Part shown: positions 7,102 to 51,850 of the stretch, one piece after another | Layout of the letters: each line of letters begins with the position of its first letter | How positions within the stretch are numbered: position 1 is the first letter of the stretch | Source of the DNA: Candidatus Aenigmatarchaeota archaeon | GTDB taxonomy: Archaea; Aenigmatarchaeota; Aenigmatarchaeia; CG10238-14; SCSR01 | DNA length: 64,000 bases | Direction of reading: 5' to 3' | Assembly: GCA_030615205.1 (NCBI GenBank) | Contig: JAUWZS010000002.1 | Span: 200,082-264,081 of the forward strand | Made by a program: the position numbers and the translations under genes | The notes under the pieces: model-generated | The model's database searches: none | The model's input: only the letters and a program-made list of their open reading frames with translations | Told to the model about the DNA's origin: nothing

Positions 7102-7212
7102 TCATTTTTACACATTAATCTCTTGATAGAATAAAAGATTCAAAATTTAATAATGGATATTACGCCAAGCTTATGCCAAATTATTTTAAGAAAAATAGAT
7201 TTATTAAAAAAA

Positions 7213-7325
7213 TGGGTCCGGAGAGATTCGAACTCCCGACCTTCGCCATTTTGAGTTTTCACACAACATTATTCGTTAATGGATTACTCGTCAAGGCGAC
7301 GTCATGCCAACTAGACCACGGACCC
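7213..7325 (-). tRNA. tRNA-Val(GAC) with a 40-nt BHB intron at 37/38 (intron 7249-7288)
   Basis: Cloverleaf GGGTCCG/CGGACCC with anticodon stem TCGCC/GGCGA. The BHB has central helix TTGA/TCAA and bulges CGA and AAT. Confidence 0.93.
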
Positions 7326-7335
7326 GTATATTGAA

Positions 7336-8088
7336 CTACCATTTTTTCATTAATTTCCCAAGAATATAAATGGAAGCTATCATCGATGCTGTAATAACAT
7401 AAAGCATCTCGAAATTGACTCCTGCAATCTCTGCTGTTGGAAGCGGGGAGAATCCTGTCGGCAATCCGATAAATCCTGCGGTCTGCATACCGCCTATTAT
7501 CCTAAGGCTGACGAACCCAAGACCTAGAATAAGTATAAGCATAACGGATTTAACCACTGTTGCCTGTGGTTTCATTTTTTCTAACTTTGTAAGAAGCTCT
7601 GGCTCAACATCGTGCATTTCGTATAATCTATTTAATATCTCTCCGCTCTTTCGAATGTCATCAGTCAAATCTTTAGTTTCTTCTAACTCGCCTGTGATTT
7701 TATCTTTCCAATGTTTTCGAAGCCTGCTTGATCTGTATTTGTCAATCTCTAACGCAAGTTTGTAGACGTTGTCCTCCAAAAATCTTCGAGTACTTTTTAA
7801 CCAGCCTTTTGCTGCTACCAGGCTTCTAATGTCTTTGCAATACTCATCAAACTCACGCAGATATTTTCCACAAAGTCCCGCTACCTCTTCCAATTCTTTG
7901 TATTTTGGAAAGTTTTTCAATGACCTGTTTACTATAAGTTCCAAATCCAATCCTATCAGATCAGTCCAAATTTCAGAAAGATAATTGTTCAATCGTATAA
8001 CTTCTTTCTCTGTAGGAGTGAATTTAACTTCTTTATATACTGCCATTAAATAGACAATACACTTTATATAATTTAATTTTTCGGTCAT
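7336..8088 (-). CDS. Hypothetical protein with helical N-terminus and two C-terminal TM helices
   Basis: 250-aa ORF with hydrophobic C-terminal segments. Confidence 0.7.
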   Translation of the reverse strand: MTEKLNYIKCIVYLMAVYKEVKFTPTEKEVIRLNNYLSEIWTDLIGLDLELIVNRSLKNFPKYKELEEVAGLCGKYLREFDEYCKDIRSLVAAKGWLKSTRRFLEDNVYKLALEIDKYRSSRLRKHWKDKITGELEETKDLTDDIRKSGEILNRLYEMHDVEPELLTKLEKMKPQATVVKSVMLILILGLGFVSLRIIGGMQTAGFIGLPTGFSPLPTAEIAGVNFEMLYVITASMIASIYILGKLMKKW

Positions 8089-8115
8089 GAAGTTATGAAG
8101 TAGAAAAGAACGCGA

Positions 8116-8150
8116 ACATCCAGGGTAAGTGTTTAACTAATTGTTAAGAA
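8116..8150 (-). repeat. Most degenerate tRNA-Ser 3'-end-like copy, sharing its tail with the copy at 12955
   Basis: ACATCCAGGGTAAGTGTTTAACTAATTGTTAAGAA compared with ACGCCCAGGGTTGGTGTTTAACTAATGGTTAAGAA at 12955. Confidence 0.65.
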
Positions 8151-8393
8151 GTATATAATAGCAGCAAAATTTGAGGTCCAAATCTTTCAACGCTCAAAAT
8201 CCCGAAGGAAATCAAACATCTAGAGACCTGAATTTTCCCATTCACTGCTAAGCTAAATATAGTTTTATCATACTAAATAGTTATCGTTTCTGATTAACTT
8301 GTCTCGTCTCTAAAATTCTTTTGAGTCACACAGAAACATTTATCGTTCTGTAAATCTGACGTGAATTATAATATGATGAAATAATGTGGTAAA

Positions 8394-8930
8394 ATGAAAC
8401 CGAAAATTGAAGTCAGAAACATGGTAATCACAGTTACCTTTTCCGATCAGGTGGATCTCAATTATTTAGCAAGTAAGTTAGAGGGTGCTGAATACGCTCC
8501 CCAGCAATTTCCCGGTTTGGTGTATAGGATGAAAAAACCAAAGACAAGCTTTCTGATATTTTCTTCAGGGGTAATGAATTGTACTGGTGCAAGAAGTATA
8601 AAAGAAGCGAAAAAAGCGATATCACAGATGTTAAATATACTAAAGAAGCTGGGGGTCAAGGTGAGAAAGCCAAAGATGGAGATTCAAAACATAGTCGCAA
8701 CATATGACTTTGGAAGACGGATATATCTCGATAAGGCTCTACAACTAGAGAATACAGAGTACGAGCCAGAACAGTTTCCAGGCCTTGTCTACAGAACGAA
8801 AAAAAGCGTCGTCTTTCTAGTGTTTGGTAGTGGAAAAATAGTTTGCGTTGGAGCGAGGAACGTAAAACAAACTGAAGAAGCAATTGAGAATCTCATCAAA
8901 AAATTTAAGCGAATCCGTGCTTTAAAGTGA
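8394..8930 (+). CDS. tbp: TATA-box-binding protein
   Basis: Two repeats with EY(A/E)P(Q/E)QFPGLVYR, LIFSSG and LVFGSGKIVCVGA. Confidence 0.97.
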   Translation: MKPKIEVRNMVITVTFSDQVDLNYLASKLEGAEYAPQQFPGLVYRMKKPKTSFLIFSSGVMNCTGARSIKEAKKAISQMLNILKKLGVKVRKPKMEIQNIVATYDFGRRIYLDKALQLENTEYEPEQFPGLVYRTKKSVVFLVFGSGKIVCVGARNVKQTEEAIENLIKKFKRIRALK

Positions 8931-8952
8931 GTTATGGCCTAACTTTTTCTGG

Positions 8953-8966
8953 ACGCCCAGAGTGAA
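8953..8966 (-). repeat. Degenerate tRNA-Ser 3'-end copy
   Basis: ACGCCCAGAGTGAA compared with tRNA ACGCCCAGGGTGGG. Confidence 0.6.
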
Positions 8967-9038
8967 TATCCAAACTATAATTCAAATACAGTATGGAATC
9001 TTTATATGAATAGTTTGAGAAATTATTATTAGGTATAG

Positions 9039-11657
9039 ATGAAAAAGTTAATATTTTTAGGCTTGTTGGTAGCGTTTTTGCTGATTCAAGCTGCAGTAGA
9101 AGCTACGGAAATTTCTTATTGCTCAGTCAACCCTCAAGAGGTTGATTTGTCTGTTTCTGATCAAATTGAAGTTATAGTTTACTTAAACAATACGCAGAAT
9201 GTAACGGCTGAAGATACTGTTGAAATAAGTTTTCCTACAACTTACCTGTCATGTGTTGGAGATTGTGTAGAGCAAGTTACAACATTACCTTATTCCATTG
9301 AGACTGTTAATTTTACTTTACAAGCATTGAGTGAAACAACTGAAGAACAATCTATCACAGTTACCCAACCAGCCTCTTATGCTTGTCCATCAATTATAAA
9401 AATAACTGCTGCTACAACGACGACTTCAACTACAACGAGTACTACTGAGCCAACTACAACAACTATTGCCACAACGACAACAAGTACAATTCCTCCAACT
9501 ACTACAACTTTAAAACAACAACTATCAGCTAGTATAACTCTACCTAAAACGACTTATTATCCGGCTGAAAGTTTTGAGCCAAGAGTTACGGTTAGAGATC
9601 CTTATGGAGAAATTGTTATTGATGCGTCTGTAGCTGGTACTTTAACTTATGGAACCGAACATACGTATCTAAGGTTCTTTTACTCTACTTTATGTGACTG
9701 CTATAAAGCATGGCACTGGTTTGGTGAAGGAACCCTACCGAATGATTATACCCTAAATGTAACTGCTTCTCATCCTAGCTATGACTCAGCAACCGCAACT
9801 ACCAGTTTTTCTTTAATTAAACCTACTTTGCAAATGACGATGTCGACTGATAAAACTGAATACAATCCAGGAGATTCAATCAAAACAACTGTTGAAGTAA
9901 AAGATAGTCTAGGTAATGCTATAACTGATGCCTATGTGACAGGTGATATTAGAGATGCCGATACTGGTGATTTGATCACAATAATCTACCCATGGCTAAG
10001 GGAAGGCGTTTATTATTATGAATATTATGTTGGGTCAGAAAGTGTAGGAAAAAGTTATACTATATCCATCAGTGTAAGCTGGAAAGAGCAATCTGCATCT
10101 GATTCTAAAACGGTTTCAGTCACAAAAAGAGGGTTAAATGCTGACATAGTTTTGGAAAAAGATGTTCTAATGTCTGGAGATACTTTGCAAGGAAAGATAA
10201 AAGTTTTTGATAAAGATGGCAATATAATTACAGATGCATGGGTTGATGTAAGGATTAAAGATCCGGATGACAACTTCTTTAGATTCTTGTCCACTGAGTA
10301 TAAGGATGGATTTTATGAGATTGAAAAATATAAAATACAAGAATGGGCCTCAATGGGGACTTACAGTTTAAATGTTAGAATAGAAAAAGCTGGGGAAAGT
10401 ATAACTTTAAAGAAGACAATTGAAATAACTAAAGAAAAATTAAATGTTCAAGTAATTCTCGATCAAACCAGCTACGCCCCAGGCGATAGAATTTATATTA
10501 AAATTTTGGTAACACATCCAGATGGTTCTATTGTTTCTGATGCTTATATCGGTGGTGAAATATTTCCATTAACACAGGAAGTAATTAATCAAACAGTGGG
10601 AATAACTGGCGCAGCCATACTAATAAGCCCAATTGGCCTTCCAGTAATGATTGGAGAACCAACACACGTTTGTAGAGTTCACATTTCACCAGAAGGTCCG
10701 CTTTATTACAAAGGTGAATATATCCAGAGGTATTATATAGATGATGCCTATATCCCTAATTGGTGTCCTACTGGAACGTATGTTCTACGATTAAGAATTA
10801 GTGCATCTGGGTATGTAGATACGGAATTTACCAGAGAATTCAGTGTTGCCTTGTACAAACTTTTGCTAGAAACTGGGTTTAAGATTTATAGCACTCCTAA
10901 TAGAGTTGATATGGGTATATATGCTGAAGTAAAAGATGAACAAGGAATAGTCGTTCCATATGTACACATAAAAGGCTATTTACATCCGTTTGAAGAGGAC
11001 GTTGAAGGCTGCATAAAAAGAGTATATTTGGGTTATGATGAATTTACAAGCAGATACTCATCCAGGTTACATTTAAACAAATACGAATGTCCGGCTGGCG
11101 AGTATTTATTAGAGATAACCGCTTCTCAACCATCTTATGAAACTGCTTCTATCGAACAATTGGTAGAAATAAATTATTCAGAAGGTTATGAATATAATGT
11201 AATAATCCCTTCGGTCATTGGCAGACCTGTATGTAGAGAAGTTTCATGTGGACCTAATTGTTTTACTAGAATATGTGAAACACCTACATCCCCAGAAGAA
11301 TGTTATGAAGAGGTTTCTGATAAAGAATGTGTAAAAGATTGTACTGATAGAGCAGCTGCCATAGAACAGGTTATTACTAGAGGGGGAGATGCTGCTGAAC
11401 TTGATGTAAAGGCGTGTATAGAAAATTGTGTTAAAAGGATACCATGTAAAGGTTCTGCTGTCACACCACCACAAAGTCAGGATATGCTTGACAAATTAGA
11501 AGCAATTCATGCAGATATTAGAGAAACACAAGAACAAGTCAATGTAATAGAGGGATTGATAAGGTCTATAATTGATTTTATTAATTCAGTAGTTGCAGCT
11601 TTTGGTAACGCCTTTGGTGGAGGTCAAGTTACACCAATAAACACAACAGGACCTTAA
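9039..11657 (+). CDS. Secreted protein with tandem Ig-like (MG2/macroglobulin-type) repeats
   Basis: Signal peptide, Thr-rich linker, repeated TDKTEYNPGD / LDQTSYAPGD-type motifs and a Cys-rich C-terminal part. Confidence 0.75.
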   Translation: MKKLIFLGLLVAFLLIQAAVEATEISYCSVNPQEVDLSVSDQIEVIVYLNNTQNVTAEDTVEISFPTTYLSCVGDCVEQVTTLPYSIETVNFTLQALSETTEEQSITVTQPASYACPSIIKITAATTTTSTTTSTTEPTTTTIATTTTSTIPPTTTTLKQQLSASITLPKTTYYPAESFEPRVTVRDPYGEIVIDASVAGTLTYGTEHTYLRFFYSTLCDCYKAWHWFGEGTLPNDYTLNVTASHPSYDSATATTSFSLIKPTLQMTMSTDKTEYNPGDSIKTTVEVKDSLGNAITDAYVTGDIRDADTGDLITIIYPWLREGVYYYEYYVGSESVGKSYTISISVSWKEQSASDSKTVSVTKRGLNADIVLEKDVLMSGDTLQGKIKVFDKDGNIITDAWVDVRIKDPDDNFFRFLSTEYKDGFYEIEKYKIQEWASMGTYSLNVRIEKAGESITLKKTIEITKEKLNVQVILDQTSYAPGDRIYIKILVTHPDGSIVSDAYIGGEIFPLTQEVINQTVGITGAAILISPIGLPVMIGEPTHVCRVHISPEGPLYYKGEYIQRYYIDDAYIPNWCPTGTYVLRLRISASGYVDTEFTREFSVALYKLLLETGFKIYSTPNRVDMGIYAEVKDEQGIVVPYVHIKGYLHPFEEDVEGCIKRVYLGYDEFTSRYSSRLHLNKYECPAGEYLLEITASQPSYETASIEQLVEINYSEGYEYNVIIPSVIGRPVCREVSCGPNCFTRICETPTSPEECYEEVSDKECVKDCTDRAAAIEQVITRGGDAAELDVKACIENCVKRIPCKGSAVTPPQSQDMLDKLEAIHADIRETQEQVNVIEGLIRSIIDFINSVVAAFGNAFGGGQVTPINTTGP

Positions 11658-11682
11658 CTAAAGAAAAAAAGAAATAATATAT

Positions 11683-12108
11683 ATGATAAATTTACAATCG
11701 AAAAATTTCCAACTCATATGGGCAATTTGGATACTCATTCTTGGCCTATCATTGCTTTTTATGCATACTATTGAAAATGTTCACTCATTCTCGGAATATC
11801 TGAACGCATTTGTAACTTTAGATATGCCATCTTCATGGTGCCCAACTTTTCTGATCATTTATGGTATTGCTACATTAGCTGCATATGCTCTGGCCGACTC
11901 TGGATTAAAGAAAGCATTCACTGCTATAGCACTATTTGCAGGTCTTGCTCTTTTACCGATAGGGATTTATGCAATATATGAGTTCACTCTTACCTCTCCT
12001 TTTGGATTCGATTTTATGTACATATATACTCAGGCAATCCATATCTCAGAGATTTTAACTGGACTTGGACCCTTAACTATTTTTCTTTTGGCAAAATTGA
12101 AAAAATAA
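11683..12108 (+). CDS. Hypothetical membrane protein (about 4 TM helices)
   Basis: Hydrophobic segments throughout the ORF. Confidence 0.7.
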   Translation: MINLQSKNFQLIWAIWILILGLSLLFMHTIENVHSFSEYLNAFVTLDMPSSWCPTFLIIYGIATLAAYALADSGLKKAFTAIALFAGLALLPIGIYAIYEFTLTSPFGFDFMYIYTQAIHISEILTGLGPLTIFLLAKLKK

Positions 12109-12118
12109 ATATGAATAG

Positions 12119-12487
12119 ATGTGTATGTTGGCAAAAAATTTGAATGATTGTAAAGAGTTCATTGCTGGGGATAAAACAATAATAAGAGAGGTACTTCATC
12201 CAAAAAATGATGATATTGATTTAAGGTTTAGTATTGCTTATGCAAAAGTCAAGCCAGGAGATGCGTCATTGCCTCACAGGCTCAAAGCAACAGAGATTTA
12301 TTACATCCTGAAAGGACAAGGGATCATACATGTTGATAAAGAGTCAAAAGAAATTAAAGAAGGATGGGTGATACATGTACCACCTAATGCAGTTCAATTC
12401 ATAAAAAATATAGGAGATGAAGAATTGGAATTTCTTTGTATAGTCGATCCAGCGTGGCGCCCAGAAGACGAAGAAATTATTAAATAA
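12119..12487 (+). CDS. Cupin domain protein
   Basis: PHRLKATEIYYILKGQG and IHVPPNAVQFIKNIG motifs. Confidence 0.9.
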   Translation: MCMLAKNLNDCKEFIAGDKTIIREVLHPKNDDIDLRFSIAYAKVKPGDASLPHRLKATEIYYILKGQGIIHVDKESKEIKEGWVIHVPPNAVQFIKNIGDEELEFLCIVDPAWRPEDEEIIK

Positions 12488-12502
12488 TCACTCAAAGGCA
12501 AA

Positions 12503-12916
12503 TTAAGATATGTATTTTAATCTCTCCCTCATCCTCTCCTCTTTTTTTATTCTCTCCTCTTTAATCTTTTTTTTAATTTCCATAACCATTTTTTTCTTAT
12601 CTTCATCTATTAAAAGCTCTTTTGATGCATAGAGCTCTTCACCTTTTTCTGATAGGTAATAATTTCTCTCTTTTAAACGCGACTCTTCATCATGGTCAAT
12701 TAACCTTAAACTAACGCCTCTCTCGAGTCTTATCAACAAACCAGCAGTATTTTCTCTTTTTTTCTCAAGGTATTCTACTATTTTCCCGTAAGTCGCACGA
12801 GATAGTTCATATAAGGAACAAAGAGCCAATGAATAAAGAGCCTCTAATAGTCCTATGTTTCTTTTGACATATTCAAATCTTTTTCTCTTTAATGAGCCGT
12901 TTGTACCTGGATTCAT
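12503..12916 (-). CDS. Hypothetical protein, possibly winged-helix
   Basis: ATYGKIVEYL...LLIRL...YYLSEKGEE resembles a wHTH wing. Confidence 0.55.
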   Translation of the reverse strand: MNPGTNGSLKRKRFEYVKRNIGLLEALYSLALCSLYELSRATYGKIVEYLEKKRENTAGLLIRLERGVSLRLIDHDEESRLKERNYYLSEKGEELYASKELLIDEDKKKMVMEIKKKIKEERIKKEERMRERLKYIS

Positions 12917-12954
12917 AATCTGTTTTTAAAAATTAACTTTAAATTTATTTTGGG

Positions 12955-12989
12955 ACGCCCAGGGTTGGTGTTTAACTAATGGTTAAGAA
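12955..12989 (-). repeat. tRNA-Ser 3'-end copy (att-like)
   Basis: ACGCCCAGGGTTGG followed by the palindromic TTAACTAATGGTTAA. Confidence 0.8.
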
Positions 12990-13003
12990 ATGAATGGGCG
13001 TTT

Positions 13004-16000
13004 TTAAACAACGTTTGATAAATCTGCTTTCCAGACACCGTACTCCGCGAGACCTAAAATTAAATATCTATTATCTGGTGTAAGTGCCAAATTATCTGCA
13101 ACATTGTCCCTTACTTGATTATTTGTGCTCGGCAGCCCGCTGTCTATGCTTTTCCAGCTGTTTCCAGCGTCTCTGCTTATATAAACGCCATTGTTAGTGC
13201 TTAAAAATAATACGTTGTGATCTGGTGGGTAGATTATAAGAGTATAAAATTCACTTCTATCATCAAGGCCATTCATGATTCTAAACCAGTTCTCTCCACC
13301 GTCTGTTGATTTCATTACAACTCCGCAAAAATCGTTTCTATGACAGAAGCCCTTGTTTTGTCCGTTCTTGGTCGAAGTGTACATTATATTCGTATTGTTA
13401 TCATCAATCGCCACTGTGTAAGGCCACTGCTCTGATGGCATTCCGGTGCTTATCATTTCCCATGTTCTCCCTCTGTCAACAGATTTTACAATCCCGTTGT
13501 ATGTTCCTGCAAACAATATGTCGTGGTTGTGTGGATGCATGCTCAAAGAGAACATACCGTCATTTCCAAGACGCAGACTTGAGTCTTTCCATGTATGTCC
13601 GTTGTCTTCGCTTATGAAAAATCCGCTTGGGAAATGCCCGTAATATACTTTGCCGGGCACGTCTGAATCGAACAATATCGAGCTGAACTGGTACATCCTC
13701 CTCTCCCACGCGCTCCAAAAACCGCCGCCAAATGTCCTTCCCAGATTCTGCCATTCGTTACTCGCTTGGTTAAACCTGTATATCCCGTATCCGCCAGTTC
13801 CTGCATAGAGTACAGACTCTGTTGTAACTGTCTTTCTTACACTGACATCGTCTACATAAACCTTGGAGTCATCCAATGTTTCAAATGCGACAGCCCCGCC
13901 AGCTAAAGGTTCAGAATCAATGTAATCAATTTTCAGCGTATCGTCAACATAGACTTTTATATTACTGCCGCTTAACTCTATTCTAAAATCATACCATTGA
14001 CCTAAATTATAAGATTCTCGAGTATCTGTCAATTCAGCAAGTTCGCTCCATTTATTAAATTGTCTGGTTAAATACAATCCTCCGTCATTGAATCCCAGAA
14101 AATACCTTCCTTCACCGCTTTTTCTAAAGTTGATATGAACTCCGCCTTGAATTAATTTTACTTTGGCCTCAAAGGTGTAATCCGTCCAGCTTTCCGAATC
14201 AGCATTAACCCAGTTATGTCCAATGCCTTGTAAAACATAATTACCGTTTTCCTGTATGACAGACCAATCGTCTTTAAACTCCCATTTATCTGTATTACCA
14301 TCCTCAAAATTATCTTCAAAGGGCGGCCATTCAATGCTTATAATCTTTAGCGATCTTATGTTAAGAGTTTCCAATCCATTATTCATCTCCCCCCAACTTT
14401 TCCCGCCATTTCTCGTAACAAACACCCCCTCCTCACTGGCAACATAAACTGTGTTCGAGTCTGCAGGGTCAATAAGTATGTCGGTTACTGGTTTTCCACG
14501 CATCTCGTTATTGTCCCCAAACAGAGGCATCTGGCTGTCAGCACCATCATTGGATACATAAATTCCTTTATCATAGGTAGCAAAATAGAGTTGGTTTGAA
14601 TCCGTGGGGTCAATTGCGAATCTGTAATATCCCTGCCTGACAGGATCATCCACCTCAAAGCTTGGTAAAAAGAAATTCTTGTCTTTCCATGTTGTTCCAC
14701 CATTCATTGTTTTGAACATGCCTCCAGGATAGGAACTTGCATAAATTACATCAGAATCTGTGGAATCAATCATTATTTGGATGTTATAGATTTCAGGTTT
14801 AGGTCCGTCAGTGGCAGTCCAACTGACGCTATAATCCGCATCGCTGATGTCGCCAACATAGACTCCACCACCACGGGTTCCGGCATATATTTTATTCTCG
14901 CTGACAACTAAAGCACCTGTGCTTTTATAATCAAGTCCGCTATTCTGAGCTGTCCATGTATTGCCGCCATCTGTTGTCAGATAGATGCCACCTGCTCCTC
15001 CGGCATAGATTACCATCGAATTCTCTGGATGAATAGCTAACGCTCTACAAGGTTTGCTTATAACATCTTGATTTATGTTCGTCCATGTTAACCCACCATC
15101 TTCACTCTTATACACCCCATGAGTTCCTATGTCTTCAGCTGGGACATCAGGGAAGAACCGTGGATCCAGTAGCTCTTCAGGGCATCTTCTTCCCATAATC
15201 GCTGCAGCGTACAGAATATTTGGATTAGACGGGTCTATCTCAATATCGAAGGTGCCAACTATTGGCATAGAGTCCAGATTCTGCCAACTTGTTCCTCCAT
15301 CAGTTGTCTTATACACGTTCTCGCCATGCAGTGAAACGTAGATCGTGTCTGAATCTGTGGGATCAACCGCAATGTCGATGATGGCTCTGGGAATGCTGCC
15401 TGTTATATCCGTAGCTTCCCCGTCGCTGATTTTGAACAAACTGCCAAGGATCGCATTATGTTTGAAGGCCGATACATAGATAGTGTTGTGGTCGCTCGGA
15501 TCAAGCTTTATCTTGAACAGTCTGGAGTACATAGAACCTGCATAAAAAATATTTTGCCAAGTCTGTCCACCATCTGCTGATTTATACAAATAAGGATGTG
15601 CTCTGCCCGCAGCATAAACTATGTTTGGATTAGCAGGATCAACAACGATGCTCGCAATCGATAGGGTGGGGATATTCTCTATTTCTGTCCAAGTCTCACC
15701 GCTATCCACAGTCTTAAACAATCCTGCTCCCCAAGGCGCGGCATAAATTATGTCTTCATCAGTTGGATCAATAGCTAGTTGATTCTGGGAGTGTATTGTG
15801 CTGAAGAAGAAGTCCTCATTGAGCCTGCCCCAAGTTTCTCCTTTGTCGTTACTGAAATATATTTTTCCTTCTTCTCCTACCACCCCTGCATAGATTTTAT
15901 TTGGATTTGATTCGTCAAATCTTATGGATGTTATTCCTTTAGAATTTTCTACCCTTAATATCTCACTCCAACCAGAGTTTTCCTCTTGATATTTGGAATA

Positions 16001-17719
16001 TTTCCATATGGATGAATGGTTCTCAAATATTTTTGGCGAATATGTGGCATAGAAAATATTGCTGTTTTCAGGATCAATCTCAATATCATATGTATAATCA
16101 GGAGAGTTTGTGAGATAATGCCATTCCTTTTGGCCCGAATATTCAGATATGCCAACACCAATATTCGATACATAAATTTTGCTAGGATCGTCTTTTGCAA
16201 TTTCAAAATCAAAAATCTTTGCTGATGAAAATTCTTCAGCAATCCTCTGGAAAGTTCTTCCTGAGTCGTATGATTCGTATATGTTGGTCATCTCATCAAT
16301 CAATAGGATATGATTCGGATTGTGCGGGTCAACCCTCACTTCGTCTCCAGCACTGACCGGTGAGAAAGGTTCCCATGTTTCTCCCCAATCTCTTGTAGCA
16401 TATGACTCTTGAATCACATTTCCTGAAGTTAATACAATGTTTGGGTCTGTCGGATGAGTTATAATAATAGTGGGGGATGATGCAACAATATCCCCATCCA
16501 TCTTTTTCCATGTTGCCATGCCGTCTTCTGACTTAAGGATCCCCAAAGCCCATATCCCACCAGTCTTGCCATAGACTATGTTTGGGTTGTCAAAATCGAA
16601 TAAGAGTGTGTCTAACCCAAAGCTCATTTCGCTAAATTCCCTAATTGTAGGCGTATCAAAATATTCATAATTGGCACCATCTATCTTGAGTATGCTTGGA
16701 CCACCGTACGGGTTTAGGAGATAATAAGACGATCCGACAATATCAACATCGGTTATACCGTTAGATTGAAGAGTGAGGTCTGTTACAGGACTCCACGTTC
16801 TTCCTCTGTCATAGGATTCTCTTAAGAGCTCGGATATAGGAGACATAAATTCATGCACGATGTTATGTTTAAACGATATTACTATATGGTCTGGATTGTT
16901 GGGGTTCTGGACAATGTTTGCAATTATAAGGTCGTCCGACATACCAAGATCAACCCTGGACCAGGTATCACCAAGATTTTCTGAAAGATATAGGTGACCA
17001 TTTGTAAATTCCCCGCTGCCGTCTACATGTAAAATAATATTTACTAGGATTCTATTTCCAAGCGCGATAATGTTTGGAACTTTTTTATAGTACCCGAAAC
17101 CAATATCCTCTGGTGGCAAAACTAAATCTCTTAATTCAGACTCAGAGGGAGATATATCCTTCCAATTAAAATTCTCTAAAGCTAAATCAACATATTGTAT
17201 TTTGACATTTGTTTTGTCGTCAGAAGTCACAAAAAGTTTATTGTCACTAACTATCGCTTCATTGCACCATTCATTTAAAATTTTTACAAGATTTTTCTCG
17301 GTATCATAATAATAAGCGCCATCACCACAAGTGAATAATTTATCTTCAAAGGCTGCTACAGAAGACACATGAATATTTTCCAATTCACTTATTACTTGCC
17401 AGCTTTCACCCTTGTCTTCAGATTTGTGTATACCTTTGCTCGTTATTGCATATAATTCATGTGACATAGAAGGATTCTGTATTAGCTGGGTTACACGCCC
17501 TCCTGGAGGGCCATTCATAGACTGCCAGGAAATAGTTAAATCAATACAATCCCCGGGACAATTTTTATTTTCATCTAATTCACATATCCCATTGCCGCAG
17601 ACAGCTTTTTGTACAGATTCTTCAGGCTCTTTTACAGGTTGCTGAATACAGCCGCTAATAAAAATAATTCCAACAATTACCAATGCCAAAACCATCGAAC
17701 TAAGATATTTTGATTTCAT
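13004..17719 (-). CDS. Large lipoprotein with BNR/Asp-box (VPS10/sortilin-like) beta-propellers and an inserted lectin-like (DUF1080-type) domain
   Basis: IISGC lipobox and many S-x-D-x-G-x-T/S-W Asp-boxes. The insert runs FEDNFEDG...WYDFRIEL...VYVDDV. Confidence 0.85.
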   Translation of the reverse strand: MKSKYLSSMVLALVIVGIIFISGCIQQPVKEPEESVQKAVCGNGICELDENKNCPGDCIDLTISWQSMNGPPGGRVTQLIQNPSMSHELYAITSKGIHKSEDKGESWQVISELENIHVSSVAAFEDKLFTCGDGAYYYDTEKNLVKILNEWCNEAIVSDNKLFVTSDDKTNVKIQYVDLALENFNWKDISPSESELRDLVLPPEDIGFGYYKKVPNIIALGNRILVNIILHVDGSGEFTNGHLYLSENLGDTWSRVDLGMSDDLIIANIVQNPNNPDHIVISFKHNIVHEFMSPISELLRESYDRGRTWSPVTDLTLQSNGITDVDIVGSSYYLLNPYGGPSILKIDGANYEYFDTPTIREFSEMSFGLDTLLFDFDNPNIVYGKTGGIWALGILKSEDGMATWKKMDGDIVASSPTIIITHPTDPNIVLTSGNVIQESYATRDWGETWEPFSPVSAGDEVRVDPHNPNHILLIDEMTNIYESYDSGRTFQRIAEEFSSAKIFDFEIAKDDPSKIYVSNIGVGISEYSGQKEWHYLTNSPDYTYDIEIDPENSNIFYATYSPKIFENHSSIWKYSKYQEENSGWSEILRVENSKGITSIRFDESNPNKIYAGVVGEEGKIYFSNDKGETWGRLNEDFFFSTIHSQNQLAIDPTDEDIIYAAPWGAGLFKTVDSGETWTEIENIPTLSIASIVVDPANPNIVYAAGRAHPYLYKSADGGQTWQNIFYAGSMYSRLFKIKLDPSDHNTIYVSAFKHNAILGSLFKISDGEATDITGSIPRAIIDIAVDPTDSDTIYVSLHGENVYKTTDGGTSWQNLDSMPIVGTFDIEIDPSNPNILYAAAIMGRRCPEELLDPRFFPDVPAEDIGTHGVYKSEDGGLTWTNINQDVISKPCRALAIHPENSMVIYAGGAGGIYLTTDGGNTWTAQNSGLDYKSTGALVVSENKIYAGTRGGGVYVGDISDADYSVSWTATDGPKPEIYNIQIMIDSTDSDVIYASSYPGGMFKTMNGGTTWKDKNFFLPSFEVDDPVRQGYYRFAIDPTDSNQLYFATYDKGIYVSNDGADSQMPLFGDNNEMRGKPVTDILIDPADSNTVYVASEEGVFVTRNGGKSWGEMNNGLETLNIRSLKIISIEWPPFEDNFEDGNTDKWEFKDDWSVIQENGNYVLQGIGHNWVNADSESWTDYTFEAKVKLIQGGVHINFRKSGEGRYFLGFNDGGLYLTRQFNKWSELAELTDTRESYNLGQWYDFRIELSGSNIKVYVDDTLKIDYIDSEPLAGGAVAFETLDDSKVYVDDVSVRKTVTTESVLYAGTGGYGIYRFNQASNEWQNLGRTFGGGFWSAWERRMYQFSSILFDSDVPGKVYYGHFPSGFFISEDNGHTWKDSSLRLGNDGMFSLSMHPHNHDILFAGTYNGIVKSVDRGRTWEMISTGMPSEQWPYTVAIDDNNTNIMYTSTKNGQNKGFCHRNDFCGVVMKSTDGGENWFRIMNGLDDRSEFYTLIIYPPDHNVLFLSTNNGVYISRDAGNSWKSIDSGLPSTNNQVRDNVADNLALTPDNRYLILGLAEYGVWKADLSNVV

Positions 17720-17756
17720 TATAATTATAATTGATTTTCATTAGAATAAAATTGAG

Positions 17757-17792
17757 ATGCCTAGAGTAGGATTTGAACCAACATAAGGATTA
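17757..17792 (-). repeat. tRNA-Ser 3'-end copy (att-like)
   Basis: ATGCCTAGAGTAGGATTTGAACCAACATAAGGATTA; the tail is shared with the copy at 17946. Confidence 0.75.
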
Positions 17793-17794
17793 TT

Positions 17795-17896
17795 TTATTC
17801 CATGTTCTTCATGCACTCTTCTGAACAGTAGAATTTGTTTTTGAACTTCAGCTTCGAGAACGGTATTTCCTTGCCACACCAGTCACACTTCTTCAT
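17795..17896 (-). CDS. 33-aa Cys4 zinc-finger (TRASH-like) microprotein, copy 1
   Basis: MKKCDWCGKEIPFSKLKFKNKFYCSEECMKNME*; a near-identical paralog at 20090-20191 differs mostly at synonymous sites. Confidence 0.8.
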   Translation of the reverse strand: MKKCDWCGKEIPFSKLKFKNKFYCSEECMKNME

Positions 17897-17945
17897 ATAA
17901 TCAGTTTGGTCGACAGACTATAATTATCTAAATTAACTCCTTGTT

Positions 17946-17981
17946 ACGCCCAGGGTGGGATTTGAATCTACATAAGGATTA
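17946..17981 (-). repeat. tRNA-Ser 3'-end copy (att-like)
   Basis: ACGCCCAGGGTGGGATTTGAA is identical to 21208-21228. Confidence 0.9.
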
Positions 17982-17983
17982 GT

Positions 17984-18478
17984 CTACCTTTTTAATAATT
18001 TCATAAATTTCTCAGGGTTGGAGGGAGTAATCATATAATGTCTTTTATCATTGGTCGTTATCAGAATGCCATCACTTAGATTTGTCATTATCGTTCTGGT
18101 CCACCCTACATTTGGTATATAAAATATCCCAGAGTAAAGGCTTGCACCTATCCTTAAATGAAATGGAACTAAAGTCCTTTCAACCTTCTTTATATCCTTT
18201 AATTTGAGTTTAATGGTTGTAAAAAGAGACCACGAACTCAGGACATCGTTTTGGATAACATATGTTGTTTTGTACAAGCCATAGGTAGTGACAACCAAAA
18301 GAGATATAACAAAAATTATTGTCCCAAAAAAGAAGATTCGAGCAAGAAAGACTTCTGATGTGATACCTTACCAGAATCCAATTATAATAAAGAGAGCTGC
18401 CGAGAAAACTGTTAACACGACATACATCCCACCAATCCATTCACTAATTCTGGGTTTGTTAATCACATATTTCTTCAT
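17984..18478 (-). pseudogene. Membrane protein with bacterial PH-like domain, interrupted by an in-frame TAA at 18368-18370
   Basis: The ATG at 18478 (MKKYVINKPRISEWIGG...) is in the same frame as ORF 17984-18298 across one stop codon. The C-terminus ends YMITPSNPEKF. Confidence 0.7.
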
Positions 18479-18538
18479 AATCAAATTATGTATTTAATTA
18501 TCAAAAAGGTTTCCCAAAGAAAAAAATGTGAAATATTA

Positions 18539-18580
18539 ACGCCCAAGGTGGGTGTCATCGGCTTGAGGTAGATTTTGGTG
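18539..18580 (-). repeat. tRNA-Ser 3'-end copy within a ~42-bp direct repeat shared with 20257
   Basis: ACGCCCAAGGTGGGTGTCATCGGCTTGAGGTAGATTTTGGTG. Confidence 0.85.
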
Positions 18581-18596
18581 TCACATCATTATCTTA

Positions 18597-19838
18597 TTAA
18601 GAGTATCTGCGGCTTCTCCTATAGTTTGTCCTGTTCATCACTCTTCCACGGTCACCGAATCTCCTACCTCTGCGACCGCCGAATCTCCCGCTGTACATGT
18701 CTGGTCTGCGAACGCCTCTCCTGAACGGCACTCTCCTGAATTGGCCGACATGCATCTTCTCGATTTCGTAGTCGAACAGCCTTATTATCCTGCTGAACGA
18801 AGGGTGGTCGTCCCTGCACAGGAGTGAGATGGCTTTTCCTGTCTTCCCTGCCCTTGCGGTTCGGCCTATTCTGTTCGTGTATTCTTCGGAATACTTCGGT
18901 ATGGAGTAGTTGAAGATATGGCTGACGTCATTGATGTCCAATCCCCTCGCAGCCACGTCTGTGGCCACAAGGAATCTGAACCTGCCGTTGTGGAACATGT
19001 CCATCACTTTTTCGCGCCTGGCTTGGGTCATGCCTCCATGCAGTGATCCGGCATTGATATTGTTGCTTTTCAGGTTGCTCGAGATCGAGTCAACGTCTCT
19101 TCGCGAGTTGCAGAAGATTATGCCGAGCTCTGGGTTCTCTTTGTCTATCAGATGTACAAGGAGGGAGAACTTCTTGGCACGGTCGACATCGCAGTAGTAC
19201 TGCTTCAGCATGTTGTCCTGCACCTTGTTCGCTGTCCTTATCTTCTTCGCGTCTCTTGTGAAACGATCCCTTATCCTCATCAATGCAGATGGCATGGTCG
19301 CGCTGAACAGCAGAGTCTGCCTGTCCTTCGGCAGGCTACGTGCCACGAACTCTATGTCTTCGACGAAACCCATGTTTATCATCTTGTCAGCTTCGTCGAG
19401 CACGAATATGCGGATGATGTCTGTGCGGAGCGTGCCGCGTCGCATGTGGTCCATTACGCGGCCGGGTGTACCGACCACTATCTCTGCTTTTCTCAGCCCA
19501 CTAACCTGCGGCCCCATCGCAACTCCTCCGTACACTGTCTGCACGAAAAGGCCTTTGCGCTTGGAGAACTTTTTCAGCTCGCCTGCTATCTGCAAAGCCA
19601 GTTCCCTTGTCGGAGCCAACACCATTGCTTGTAGGCCGCGGCCCTTATCGACCCTTTCTATCATAGGTATTCCGAAAGCAGCGGTCTTTCCAGATCCTGT
19701 CTCGGACTGGCCGATCACGTCATGTCCTTGTTTGATAAGAGGTATTGTCTCGTACTGTATCTTCGTGGGTTTTTCATATCCCATGTCATAGATCGCGCCC
19801 AGTACATTCGAATCTATATTCAAGTCTTCAAATTTCAT
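18597..19838 (-). CDS. DEAD-box RNA helicase
   Basis: ETGSGKT, PTRELA, TPGR, DEAD, SAT, ARGLD and NRIGRTAR motifs, plus an Arg/Gly-rich tail. Confidence 0.96.
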   Translation of the reverse strand: MKFEDLNIDSNVLGAIYDMGYEKPTKIQYETIPLIKQGHDVIGQSETGSGKTAAFGIPMIERVDKGRGLQAMVLAPTRELALQIAGELKKFSKRKGLFVQTVYGGVAMGPQVSGLRKAEIVVGTPGRVMDHMRRGTLRTDIIRIFVLDEADKMINMGFVEDIEFVARSLPKDRQTLLFSATMPSALMRIRDRFTRDAKKIRTANKVQDNMLKQYYCDVDRAKKFSLLVHLIDKENPELGIIFCNSRRDVDSISSNLKSNNINAGSLHGGMTQARREKVMDMFHNGRFRFLVATDVAARGLDINDVSHIFNYSIPKYSEEYTNRIGRTARAGKTGKAISLLCRDDHPSFSRIIRLFDYEIEKMHVGQFRRVPFRRGVRRPDMYSGRFGGRRGRRFGDRGRVMNRTNYRRSRRYS

Positions 19839-20089
19839 ATTTTAATCTCACCTATATTTGCTTCTCTTTTTATTTTTTGTTTTCCCAAAGTCACAGAAGC
19901 AACAGAATTAGTATGTCACGCCGAATCAGCATCAACTAACGCTATTTGTCACACGCTTTGTACCTTGTCTTTTCTTTTCTAATCTATCATGAAATGGACA
20001 GTATTTAAACATTTGCATCTGTTTGGATTTGTCCAGCTTTGGTGTCGACCACTAAGCAAGAAAAATTCTTCTTTCAGAAGGATTGATTT

Positions 20090-20191
20090 TCAATCCATAT
20101 TCTTCCTGCACTCTTCTGAACAATAGAAGTAGCCTTTGAACTTGAGTTTGGAAAAAGGTATGTCCTTGCCGCACCAATTGCATTTCTTCAT
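20090..20191 (-). CDS. 33-aa Cys4 zinc-finger microprotein, copy 2
   Basis: MKKCNWCGKDIPFSKLKFKGYFYCSEECRKNMD*. Confidence 0.8.
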   Translation of the reverse strand: MKKCNWCGKDIPFSKLKFKGYFYCSEECRKNMD

Positions 20192-20256
20192 ATAATCATT
20201 TAAGCAGGAAGGCTTTAATTGTCCAGAACCTCTTTGAAAAATTCCTCAAGGAATGA

Positions 20257-20298
20257 ACGCCCAGGGTGGGAGTCATCGGCTTGAGGTGGATTTTGGTG
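20257..20298 (-). repeat. tRNA-Ser 3'-end copy (att-like)
   Basis: ACGCCCAGGGTGGGAGTCATCGGCTTGAGGTGGATTTTGGTG; the first 15 nt are identical to the tRNA end. Confidence 0.88.
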
Positions 20299-20358
20299 GA
20301 ACAACGTTCTTTTACCAAGAAGAATTTTTCAAGGAAATCTACATCAGCAAGAAAAAAG

Positions 20359-21150
20359 TTACATGCTTTTCAACAGAAGTTTTCCTCTCTGCCAATCGTT
20401 TATCAGCGCGAAGTATACACGTTTTTCATCTATCTTCCCACCTTTTTTCAACATGTTCCTGGCTTTTCCTATCTCCTCGATAATATCTTCAAACTCTTTG
20501 TCACCGATTTTAATGCTGTAGAATTCTTCAAGACGTTTTATCCCACTGTCGAGGAAGATCGTGACTATCTCCCTCGCAACCGCTTCAGGATCAGCGATCT
20601 TTGAGGGGTCCAATGTGCCGATTAGCGCGTGCTTGAGTTCGCTGTCTTCCCCTGTTAAAGGAATGATGCCGGGCGTGTCGATGAGTCCCACGTCAGAGCT
20701 GACGCGTACCCATTGGAATCCCCTTGTCTGGCCTGGTCTTGGACCTGTCTTTGCCCTTCTACGGCCGGCCAGTGCATTGATAAGCGATGATTTGCCTGTG
20801 TTCGGATAACCTATGACACCAATTTTCAGGAACTCGCCAGGCCTGGACCGTTTTTTAACTATTTCGAATATCTTCTTTTTCAGGAGAGTTATACCGCGTC
20901 GCTCTCTACTAGAGACAGACACACATGGAAAAGTTTTGTCAAGCGTTTGTCTGTGCTGTTTGACTGTCTTTTCCGAAACTAAATCCGCTTTGTTTATTAC
21001 GAGAATCAGTGGTTTCCCAGCCAGTTTGGCAAGGCGCTCTGCATCCTTGTTCCTTGTAAGTTCAGGCATCCTCGCGTCCAGCACTTCTACAATTACGTCC
21101 GACTCTTCGATAACTTCTTTAACAATGTCCCAAAAATCTCTCATCGACAT
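20359..21150 (-). CDS. Circularly permuted GTPase, RbgA/YlqF family
   Basis: DARMP, NKAD, GYPNTGKSS and DTPG appear in G4-G1-G3 order. Confidence 0.93.
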   Translation of the reverse strand: MSMRDFWDIVKEVIEESDVIVEVLDARMPELTRNKDAERLAKLAGKPLILVINKADLVSEKTVKQHRQTLDKTFPCVSVSSRERRGITLLKKKIFEIVKKRSRPGEFLKIGVIGYPNTGKSSLINALAGRRRAKTGPRPGQTRGFQWVRVSSDVGLIDTPGIIPLTGEDSELKHALIGTLDPSKIADPEAVAREIVTIFLDSGIKRLEEFYSIKIGDKEFEDIIEEIGKARNMLKKGGKIDEKRVYFALINDWQRGKLLLKSM

Positions 21151-21208
21151 AAGAATTGATTAGTATTTCTATGAATAAGGTTTTTGAGTTTCTTTATTGA
21201 GGAATAGA

Positions 21209-21345
21209 CGCCCAGGGTGGGATTTGAACCCACAAGGACCGAAGTCCGCTAGCTCTCTGCGTTTTTTATTTTTAGCAAGAGCTTAGCAGGCTCGCACGGC
21301 TTTACGCAAAAGCCTTAGTGCCCTACCGGGTTAGGCGACCTGGGC
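21209..21345 (-). tRNA. tRNA-Ser(GCT) with two BHB introns (29/30: 21292-21315; 37/38: 21255-21283)
   Basis: Acceptor stem GCCCAGG/CCTGGGC, discriminator G73 and a long variable arm. Removing both introns gives CTAGC-CTGCTAA-GCTAG. Confidence 0.88.
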
Positions 21346-21446
21346 TTGCTTAATTTTAATTGATTGTTGCTTCCTTAAATTCTTTTCACGAATTTTAAAT
21401 ATTAATTCTTACATATTCATATTAAGATTATCGAGGTGAAAATTTA

Positions 21447-21734
21447 ATGCCTATAACTGTAAAAGATATTGGAGATATGTTTGGAAAGGATGTTTTCACT
21501 AATAAAGGATTCTACGCTGGCAAGGTATCGGATATGGAATTCGACCTTTCACGCTTCAAAGTCCGATCAGTCGTTATCGAGGCTGCTAAAGGGGGTATGC
21601 TTGGAAAGCTGGTCGGTGGGAAGAAAGGAATAATCATACCTTATCCAATGATACAAGCAATTGGCGATGTAGTGCTCATAAAGCACATAACTAGCGCGGA
21701 GATATCAGAAGAGACAGAAGCAGTAGAAGCGTAA
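21447..21734 (+). CDS. PRC-barrel protein (CdpB-like)
   Basis: GKDVFTNKG..GKVSD and IIPYPMIQAIGDVVLI motifs; adjacent to ftsZ. Confidence 0.88.
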   Translation: MPITVKDIGDMFGKDVFTNKGFYAGKVSDMEFDLSRFKVRSVVIEAAKGGMLGKLVGGKKGIIIPYPMIQAIGDVVLIKHITSAEISEETEAVEA

Positions 21735-22064
21735 GTGTAGAATTGTAAATAGCAAAAAAACTTTTCAAAACATCCGAAAATTAAGACATCCTTATCCTTA
21801 TTTTACTTAATTCAATGCTGTATTATGTACTAAATTCTAAATAAAATTAAGACTCTTCAAGACTCGACTCCGGGAAAAATAAAAAATCACCAATCTTCTT
21901 CATCATCTAACAATGGGTCCCATATATCCTCGTCCATGAAACCAACCAGTGCTTTTCTTCTCTCTTCTTACCCCTTTGGCTTTTTCTCCAACTTTACGCT
22001 CGTTAAGTTTCCCTTCTCCTCCAAAAAAAAGAAAAATAAGGGAGAGGGCGTCCAAAGATAGCTT

Positions 22065-51498: not shown

Positions 51499-51850
51499 GG
51501 TGAGTTAGCCAGGTAGCTTCGGTTTGCTGTAAAAAGTAAACTGAGGAAGTTCCATCCATTAAGGGGAGCTACGAAAGCTGTTCCGTGCAAACGAAAGCAG
51601 TAGAGTAGTAGCATGCTGAGAAGCATTTGGCTGTATCAGAAACGGAACTTTTCTATCTCGCCAACAATGTAGCTGAAGCTCTTTCGAGTTGTCAAAGACC
51701 CGAAAAAGAAAAAGCTGAGTTGAGATAGAATAAGATGAAACGGACAGTCGGTCCCGATGCAATGCAAGTCGAAAAGACGCTTAGACAAATGCTACTTAAG
51801 TTTTTGCGCAAGCGAAAACGAAACAGAAGATGGGCTATAGCTAACACGCC
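51499..51850 (+). ncRNA. rnpB: RNase P RNA
   Basis: GAGGAAGTTCCATC (CR-I) and AACAGAAGATGG (CR-V) form the P4 pairing; P1 is GTGAGTTAGC/GCTAACAC. Confidence 0.93.

Follow-up and report, generated by a model that had tools for sequence, protein, structure and literature searches.

Downstream of the tRNA-Ser(GCT) gene of an aenigmatarchaeon lies a stack of short intervals, separated by copies of the 3′ end of that tRNA. I propose here, with moderate confidence, that it arose by serial site-specific accretion of integrase-less cassettes at the tRNA gene, mobilised in trans. The stretch analysed comprises 64,000 nucleotides of Candidatus Aenigmatarchaeota archaeon (GenBank assembly GCA_030615205.1, contig JAUWZS010000002.1, positions 200,082 to 264,081; hereafter the window). 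Within it, the last 14–21 nt of tRNA-Ser(GCT) recur seven times downstream of the gene, always on the strand of the tRNA, with intervals of about 0.19–4.8 kb. An initial annotation, made from the letters alone, had described seven same-orientation, intergenic copies, and both the reading of each copy and the open reading frame (ORF) maps confirmed this. The comparisons presented below support the view that the repeats were left behind by successive insertions at the end of the tRNA and have no function of their own.

The genome holding the window (G000) is a bin of 36 contigs, of which C26 and C29 are the two large archaeal ones. The relatives compared here include two genomes of the same genus, G001 and G002 (84% and 80% complete), and G011, from another genus. 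The array is anchored by the following gene.

21209–21345 (− strand): tRNA-Ser(GCT) with two introns (24 + 29 nt), array anchor (attachment site attB), identified by Rfam and alignment

The Rfam tRNA model matches exactly this segment (34.9 bits, for a gathering score of 29, with laxer filters). When aligned with the intronless tRNA-Ser(GCT) of G002 (L001:4456–4539), L154 and G010, it proves to be the same tRNA plus two insertions, of 24 and 29 nt, which flank the anticodon loop CTGCTAA. The position of one of these, where the anticodon stem begins, is non-canonical. ARAGORN does not report the gene by default; with introns allowed it returns the same coordinates, mislabelled as tRNA-Lys with a 61-nt intron, and it mislabels several other intron-bearing tRNAs in G000 and related loci (as Lys, Phe or Ala).

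The seven copies are listed below in order of distance from the tRNA, with identities counted against the 21-mer of the tRNA 3′ end.

20257–20298 (− strand): repeat copy, arm type A; 16/21, the first 15 contiguous; 27-nt tail in common with 18539
18539–18580 (− strand): repeat copy, arm type A; 14/21; bridged by short contigs of related strains, runs X3 and X4
17946–17966 (− strand): repeat copy, arm type B; exact, 21/21
17757–17777 (− strand): repeat copy, arm type B; 17/21; ortholog of the first copy downstream of the tRNA in G002
12955–12995 (− strand): repeat copy, arm type C; 17/21
8953–8973 (− strand): weak repeat copy, the least certain member; 14/21, with 11/14 of the first 14 nt
8116–8156 (− strand): decayed repeat copy, arm type C; 14/21; 21/22 tail in common with 12955

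Searching the window with the 21-mer at ≤3 mismatches yields 2 sites, for 0.00 expected. With its first 14 nt at ≤2 mismatches, 5 sites are found (21208, 20257, 18539, 17946 and 12955, all on the + strand as searched), against an expectation of 0.07, and none of 100 shuffles reaches 5. At ≤3 mismatches the 14-mer gives 6 sites against 3.73 expected, a number reached by 22 of 100 shuffles, and the weak copies 17757, 8953 and 8116 are therefore not callable by similarity alone. I accepted 17757 because it aligns with a better-kept copy at the same place in G002, where L001:4851–4983 matches window positions 17778–17649 at 78%, upstream of a lipoprotein gene. Copy 8116 was accepted because of the tail that it has in common with 12955, and copy 8953, the least certain, is placed by position and strand only. 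Among 55 ARAGORN tRNA calls in G000, the end of tRNA-Ser(GCT) has the most near-copies; these are in common with the TGA and CGA serine tRNAs, whose ends are 2 positions off that of Ser(GCT).

The copies had also been described as paired by tails that do not derive from the tRNA, and this holds: the A pair agrees at 39/42 positions, the B pair over 12 contiguous nt and the C pair at 21/22. I read the three paired tails as putative element-side arm types, labelled A, B and C. All copies point the same way, with their last base at the same position past the discriminator. A further claim, that decay is greatest in the two copies farthest from the tRNA, is only partly true, since 17757 has decayed as much as 8116.

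Two alternative readings of the repeats themselves can be weighed at this point. The first is that they are false joins in a metagenome-assembled genome. G000 is indeed a bin, and some of its small contigs look foreign, with CCA-encoding tRNAs. However, a 113-kb contig produced by an independent assembler, from the probable source sample, spans positions 7000–22000 with 0 differences and even depth; short related-strain contigs of other runs bridge copies 18539 and 8953; and relatives show like arrays. Small parts of the stretch recur in runs X2–X4, in short contigs from relatives, which I did not use to infer habitat. The mis-assembly that the initial annotation had named as a danger is thus not borne out, and I regard the chance of an artefact as negligible.

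The second is that selection maintains the repeats as a functional RNA or a regulatory element, such as a tRNA-like 3′ tag, a piece of a split tRNA or a terminator. Five of the seven copies sit just past the stop codon of a same-strand gene, and copy 12955 can form a 7-bp closing stem, as such an element might. Nevertheless, among 17 non-tRNA copies none has an exact 5′ acceptor partner within 120 nt upstream, and 2 have one with 1 mismatch, on which ground I rejected the split-tRNA or tRNA-like reading. Apart from the two tRNAs there is no Rfam match at E ≤ 1, and none at the copies, and folding z-scores for the seven copies range from −1.79 to +0.78, so that acceptor strand, fold and family match all came out negative. 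In relatives, moreover, the homologs of the RbgA-type GTPase and DEAD-box helicase genes held in the first two intervals lack the motif, and the copies track the tRNA sequence of each genome. A selected RNA element is accordingly very improbable.

The distal limit of the array is marked by two features.

7213–7325 (− strand): tRNA-Val(GAC), intron-bearing, distal landmark; Rfam tRNA 53.5 bits, ARAGORN Val(gac)
7336–8088 (− strand): conserved 250-aa gene, distal chromosomal flank; homologs at the same place in G002, L078 and L083

In G069, G050 and G037, three genomes from a further genus, tRNA-Ser(GCT) is followed by tRNA-Val(GAC) after 921–923 bp, and no further tRNA-end copy is found on the strand of the tRNA in that gap. 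A homolog of the 250-aa gene, which has no match in Pfam or NCBIfam, fills the ancestral gap in G002, L078 and L083. By comparison, the interval between the two tRNAs measures 14 kb with 7 copies in G000, and 4.2 kb with 2 copies in G002, where the order is FtsZ, a PRC-barrel gene, tRNA-Ser, copy, lipoprotein genes, copy, the homolog of the 250-aa gene and tRNA-Val. Since 14 kb and 4.2 kb stand against a gap of about 0.9 kb, the interval is an insertion hot spot, and its gene content varies between relatives, as a check of gene order suggested at the outset was meant to reveal. Copy 17757, aligned in both genomes, is older than the split between G000 and G002. In G011, three copies, all decayed, lie downstream of tRNA-Ser. 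More broadly, among 41 FtsZ-linked tRNA-Ser(GCT) loci whose downstream sequence reaches 2 kb or more, 7 have a same-strand copy there and 0 an opposite-strand copy; one of those seven, L167, lies beside masked sequence and is doubtful.

Copies of the tRNA end are also found away from the array. With ≤2 mismatches allowed, the 14-mer matches 16 sites on C26 and C29 together, while the reversed pattern matches 2 and 60 letter-shuffled patterns average 1.18. Three of the 16 sites are tRNA-Ser genes, and 10 of the 13 others are intergenic on a crude ORF map covering 89.5% of the DNA. Nine further copies sit within DNA unmatched in the same-genus genomes or border on it; six of them belong to insertions for which G002 has a contiguous empty site.

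C29:34135, 35014 and 35615: copies in a 2035-bp insertion; G002 has 64 nt there
C29:170995: copy at the left edge of a 1534-bp insertion; G002 has 18 nt there
C29:330735 and 333151: copies within a 16.9-kb insertion absent in G001 and G002
C26:92079: copy 19 nt past the end of homology to G002
C26:146426: copy 49 nt before a 1.6-kb segment 91% identical to G002 (neighbours 73–79%)
C26:191609: copy in DNA unmatched in G001 or G002

For the three C26 copies, homology loss alone is shown, against relatives of the incomplete state given above. A motif scattered independently of tRNA-Ser had been named as something that would speak against capture at this tRNA. Nine or more sites do lie away from the tRNA, but they are insertions or breaks in homology.

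Some of these places have features of their own. C29:34046–36080 is a second mini-array, with three decayed copies in the 2-kb insertion and a cargo of a MazG-like gene, a dual-specificity phosphatase gene and small ORFs; it lies between tRNA-Ala(TGC) and a 3-kb stretch, 86–89% identical to G001 and G002, that is probably rRNA. The 16.9-kb insertion (C29:329637–346555), at an otherwise contiguous site, carries a YoeB-like toxin gene and many family-less ORFs, and no flanking repeat of at least 10 nt was found between its two 400-nt boundary zones. The segment C26:146495–148094 corresponds to G002 C15:1–1614, in a differing place and orientation, and holds ORFs of 423 and 92 aa without family.

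Evidence that such units move comes from a sister lineage, represented by metagenome contigs L078, L080–L083, L153 and L154 (FtsZ 91–95% identical). Here tRNA-Ser(GCT) has a different 3′ end, and most loci have one to three downstream copies that match their own tRNA, most of them exactly over 20 nt and some to 31 nt. The units, of about 1–2 kb, start at a fixed base directly after the core, and most finish in a fixed arm ahead of the following core. In L154, the tRNA is followed by a nucleotidyltransferase gene with a 137-aa ORF, a copy, a 62-aa ORF with Fic, PIN and MazE genes, and another copy; in L083, it is followed by Fic, a copy, the nucleotidyltransferase with the 137-aa ORF, and a copy. 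The backbones of these two loci are 91.1% identical (2804 nt), and their cassettes 98.7% (1097 nt) and 97.2% (1150 nt). Likewise, the Fic unit of L154 is 98.7% identical to that of L082 over a backbone of 91.7%, and 97.1% identical to that of L080 over a backbone of 82–85%. As the same short forms occupy several array positions, at 97–99% identity against 82–91% for the backbone, they have moved in short form. The cargo of this lineage (nucleotidyltransferase, Fic, PIN with MazE, cupin, MgtC) is of the kind that mobile cassettes carry. tRNA-Ser(GCT) is not alone in this: in two loci an exact 16-nt copy of the tRNA-Val(GAC) 3′ end follows that gene 1.2–1.3 kb downstream (L083:17102–18300 and L153:4342–5694).

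These exchanges bear on a reading in which the intervals are decayed stumps of proviruses or plasmids that once carried an integrase, now immobile, with nothing acting in trans. Integrase loss and tandem integration are known in archaeal elements (PMC8371274, PMC6563490). A decayed integrase, broken by 5 stop codons, is indeed found directly beside tRNA-Ser(GGA) in G017, several copies in the window have decayed (14–17 of 21), and 17757 predates the split from G002. I nonetheless consider this reading unlikely: the same short cassettes, with the same core ends, occur in three or four loci at 97–99% identity against 82–91%, independent decay would not yield identical short forms, and no integrase fragment was found in any Ser(GCT) array.

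The mechanism I favour, accretion of cassettes mobilised in trans, would work as follows. The 3′ end of tRNA-Ser(GCT) would repeatedly take up small circular modules, by site-specific recombination of the Campbell type. Every such circle would carry an attP-like site composed of a module-specific arm and a core identical to the last 14–31 nt of the tRNA. Integration would rebuild the tRNA and push the earlier junction (arm plus core) one step downstream; with older junctions thus shifting at each integration, the newest module would adjoin the tRNA and older junctions would decay. Having no recombinase, the modules would most likely be moved by Xer-like integrases of elements residing at other tRNAs. 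Serial capture of circles in trans had already been put forward by the initial annotation. Insertion relics, a variable interval, integrase-less units and the reordered cassettes of the sister lineage all stand in its favour, while the circular intermediates, the acting enzyme and the mode of arrival of the window's own cassettes are what I infer. No excision joint between copies appears in the assembled contigs, but contigs drop rare forms, and they therefore say nothing either way on excision or circles.

That the units lack an integrase, as originally stated, is confirmed by the absence of any match to the tyrosine-recombinase family PF00589 in the window and of any integrase in the sister-lineage arrays. 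Across the two large archaeal contigs, PF00589 matches only C26:11264–11755 and C29:397879–398376. The search for tyrosine recombinases elsewhere in the genome that the initial annotation had advised thus yielded two Xer-like candidates, beside other tRNAs.

C26:10964–12163: Xer-like integrase; with the adjoining tRNA, C26:10964–12342
C29:397471–398682: Xer-like integrase; with the adjoining tRNA, C29:397339–398682

Both proteins are 400 aa long, with a C-terminal CxxC...CxxC zinc ribbon, and they are 39% identical to each other. Both genes lie directly downstream of a tRNA. In one case this is a tRNA-Ser(TGA) gene with an intron; its final 20 nt and those of tRNA-Ser(GCT) are the same but for 2 positions. 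They score under the XerA cut-off, and as there is no other PF00589 match on the two large contigs, no separate XerA is seen there. Against the integron-integrase model they reach 56.5 and 34.6 bits, for a cut-off of 265. Homologs are present in 29 of 61 genomes of the family, G000 included, and an ARAGORN tRNA is present at 17 of 30 integrase loci (Leu, Ser, Arg, Val, Thr, Glu and others).

The cargo of the window's intervals, listed below, agrees with the identities first assigned to it, as judged by Pfam and by comparison of the zinc-ribbon ORFs.

20359–21150 (− strand): cassette 1, YlqF/RbgA-type GTPase (Pfam MMR_HSR1); start codon 57 nt after the tRNA end
20090–20191 (− strand): first 33-aa zinc-ribbon ORF, 82% identical to 17795–17896
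18597–19838 (− strand): cassette 2, DEAD-box RNA helicase (Pfam DEAD, Helicase_C)
17984–18484 (− strand): cassette 3, bacterial-PH-domain gene broken across several frames (Pfam bPH_5 on 17984–18298)
17795–17896 (− strand): cassette 4, second 33-aa zinc-ribbon ORF; interval about 190 bp
13004–17719 (− strand): cassette 5, 1571-aa BNR/sortilin-type propeller lipoprotein (Pfam)
9039–12916: four genes, MG2-domain (+), 141-aa ORF (+), cupin (+) and 137-aa ORF (−) (Pfam)
8394–8930 (+ strand): TBP paralog (Pfam TBP, 1.4e-56)

The GTPase of cassette 1 scores 175.7 bits against the NCBIfam model GTPase_YlqF, under its cut-off of 208. The first zinc-ribbon ORF has a weak L24e-like match (E 3.5e-4); the two are the only such ORFs in G000, and none was found in other loci. 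In cassette 3, the N-terminal membrane piece of the PH-domain gene is in another frame (18368–18484). Of the 1571-aa lipoprotein, the signal peptide alone matches the lipoprotein genes that G002 and G011 have at this position. G000 has a second TBP gene at C26:300800. The genes of the five tRNA-proximal intervals run in the direction of the tRNA, while TBP and three others are on the opposite strand, and the base composition of the intervals carries no signal. A cupin cassette common to G000 and the sister lineage was considered and rejected, the proteins being only 24–31% identical.

Three of these genes have close relatives at ordinary places in other genomes. In G002, the RbgA (81%) and DEAD homologs, 81–85% identical, lie on other contigs without repeats, and their neighbours map in G000 to C26:110–148 kb. 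In the equivalent locus of G000 (C26:108–126 kb), the motif is found only at 3–4 mismatches. With the G000 RbgA protein as query, there was a match in G002 and a weak one in G011, and none in G001, G003 or G009. The DEAD homologs of G001, G002 and G011 are located elsewhere; similarity to them ends at the stop codon, and upstream of the start about 200 nt (19839–20060) are conserved between G000, G001, G002 and G011. This leader contains a TTTAAATACT box and a block GTGTGACAAATAGCGTTAGT...GTACTAATTCT.TTGCTT.TGTGAC; it has no Rfam match and might serve as a structured leader or in regulation. The closest TBP homolog adjoins tRNA-Leu(TAG) in G002 (L211) and tRNA-Glu(TTC) in G011 (L212). In G009 (L210), it lies beside genes that neighbour tRNA-Ser(GGA) in G000. 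No att-like flanking repeats were found around the RbgA, DEAD and TBP homologs in relatives.

Several of these observations weigh against serial accretion of mobile cassettes. The DEAD, RbgA and TBP homologs of relatives sit at ordinary chromosomal sites, with no flanking repeats, and because they are ordinary chromosomal genes there, a simple model of foreign cassettes is insufficient; this part of the cargo would fit capture of chromosomal genes into cassettes or rearrangement alike. None of the window's cassettes was found in another array, and their mobility therefore rests on analogy with the sister lineage, whose loci may stem from related samples and are not independent. The cassettes of that lineage also change by internal deletion or replacement that does not end at a repeat. 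As for the enzyme, none of the 30 integrase loci of the family is at tRNA-Ser(GCT), and of 125 FtsZ-linked loci, 2 hold a homolog of the two integrases, in both cases outside any Ser(GCT) array. G001 and G002 have no integrase homolog at E ≤ 1e-20, though G002 has a two-copy array. Viral contigs, scanned twice with exact patterns of two core sequences, returned nothing, so no helper element carrying this att site is known.

The same traffic of cassettes could be the work of host homologous recombination, acting on the 14–31-nt repeats or between strains. RadA is present, no Ser(GCT)-specific integrase was found in the family loci, the FtsZ-linked loci or the viral contigs, cassettes change at non-repeat sites too, and recombination between tandem archaeal elements has been discussed (PMC8371274). 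The repeats are short for such a process, however, and their single orientation and common end base after the discriminator are typical of a defined crossover site. The three conserved arm types beside the core suggest protein-binding sites, and integrases adjoining tRNAs are common in the family. Taken together, these features make host recombination quite improbable as the source of the array.

Accretion of integrase-less cassettes, the reading I retain, has parallels among known systems. The concept of cis-mobilizable elements (CIMEs) that spread by accretion comes from the integrative and conjugative elements of Streptococcus. The array has the marks of an accretion island: an intact tRNA at one end, same-strand 3′-end repeats downstream that match their own tRNA, and an interval that interrupts synteny. 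A recombinase gene, which some units of such an island should carry, was found neither in the window nor in any Ser(GCT) array among the FtsZ-linked loci. Like CIMEs, the units are flanked by att sites and hold no recombination or transfer genes.

The closest published case is that of the Dehalococcoides ssrA islands, which lie in tandem between direct repeats, 20 bp long, of the 3′ end of ssrA; the units are large, and the repeats extend over up to 100 kbp. Of these units, 16 have a serine-recombinase integration module, and 15 without one are proposed to be cis-mobilizable and moved by accretion (PMC3146451). Tandem accretion at tRNA or ssrA genes, with units that lack integration genes, is therefore already known in bacteria (PMC3146451). 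Both systems have an intact small-RNA gene, many same-orientation 3′-end repeats, units that vary between strains and conserved bases adjacent to the repeats. The present array differs in having no recombinase in any unit, units of 0.19–4.8 kb, a tRNA target and a DPANN host, and its putative helpers are tyrosine recombinases of Xer-like type, encoded beside other tRNAs. Compared with the accretion family as a whole, gene-sized units, no recombinase in any array seen and a DPANN host are what sets it apart.

The islands formed by Prochlorococcus tycheposons are likewise tRNA-anchored and variable, with older elements pushed inward, scattered partial tRNAs and remnants, and DNA most of which cannot be recognised as belonging to an element (bioRxiv 10.1101/2020.12.28.424599). 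Tycheposons have their own integrase, often replication genes, and measure 10–20 kb (same source), whereas the moving unit here appears to be the small cargo module itself. Archaeal elements with tyrosine integrases target tRNA 3′ ends, and they may pile up at a single site or shed the integrase (PMC8371274, PMC6563490); arrays through re-use of one att site have been noted for them (PMC6563490, PMC8371274). Those cases involve a few large proviruses or plasmids, unlike the gene-sized array described here. The literature searched, supplementary files aside and with several sources available in part, contained no array of seven or more gene-sized, integrase-less, reordering units, and none for DPANN. 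Papers by She et al. are said to treat ‘gene capture’ in archaeal elements.

The initial annotation also called the system integron-like, which stands as an analogy. Small, mostly single-gene, recombinase-less cassettes would be captured serially at one site, with the newest nearest to it; the cargo is of toxin-antitoxin type, and cassette order varies between strains. Archaeal integrons rest on IntI and attC (PMC9668308). An integron proper was rejected for the window: no IntI adjoins the array, the 80-nt regions of the copies, folded as DNA, have z-scores of −1.79 to +0.78 with no common structure and thus no attC-type hairpins, and the site is a tRNA end copied at each cassette end.

The host group lends this some weight, as DPANN archaea have tiny, host-dependent genomes in which gene gain and shuffling are poorly known. 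If the proposed accretion is correct, a recombinase-less cassette stack behind a tRNA would give such genomes a compact means of exchanging genes, all the more so if strains share cassettes that are more alike than their chromosomes. It would be the functional counterpart of an integron, assembled from integrases that target tRNAs, and would account for the copies of the tRNA end that mark the DNA that G000 has in excess of the same-genus genomes. A broader proposal, which I put forward tentatively and hold to be more doubtful than not, is that a tRNA-anchored cassette system does the job of the integron throughout the Aenigmatarchaeota, and perhaps in other DPANN, with integrases lent by other elements stacking, at tRNA-Ser(GCT), modules that strains exchange. 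Sites that land elsewhere in the chromosome would, in pairs, lift ordinary chromosomal genes such as DEAD, RbgA and TBP into new cassettes, and the system would bring in genes as well as rearrange a minimal genome. The array offers its three arm types plus the core as substrates, and the genome two candidate enzymes.

A last set of features concerns the genome as such. The window is archaeal, and contains the following gene.

51500–51849 (+ strand): archaeal RNase P RNA (90.7 bits)

Six small contigs of G000 (C2, C11, C13, C19, C22 and C28) carry tRNAs with encoded CCA ends, some of which duplicate anticodons of the large contigs; these contigs look foreign and are probably bacterial.

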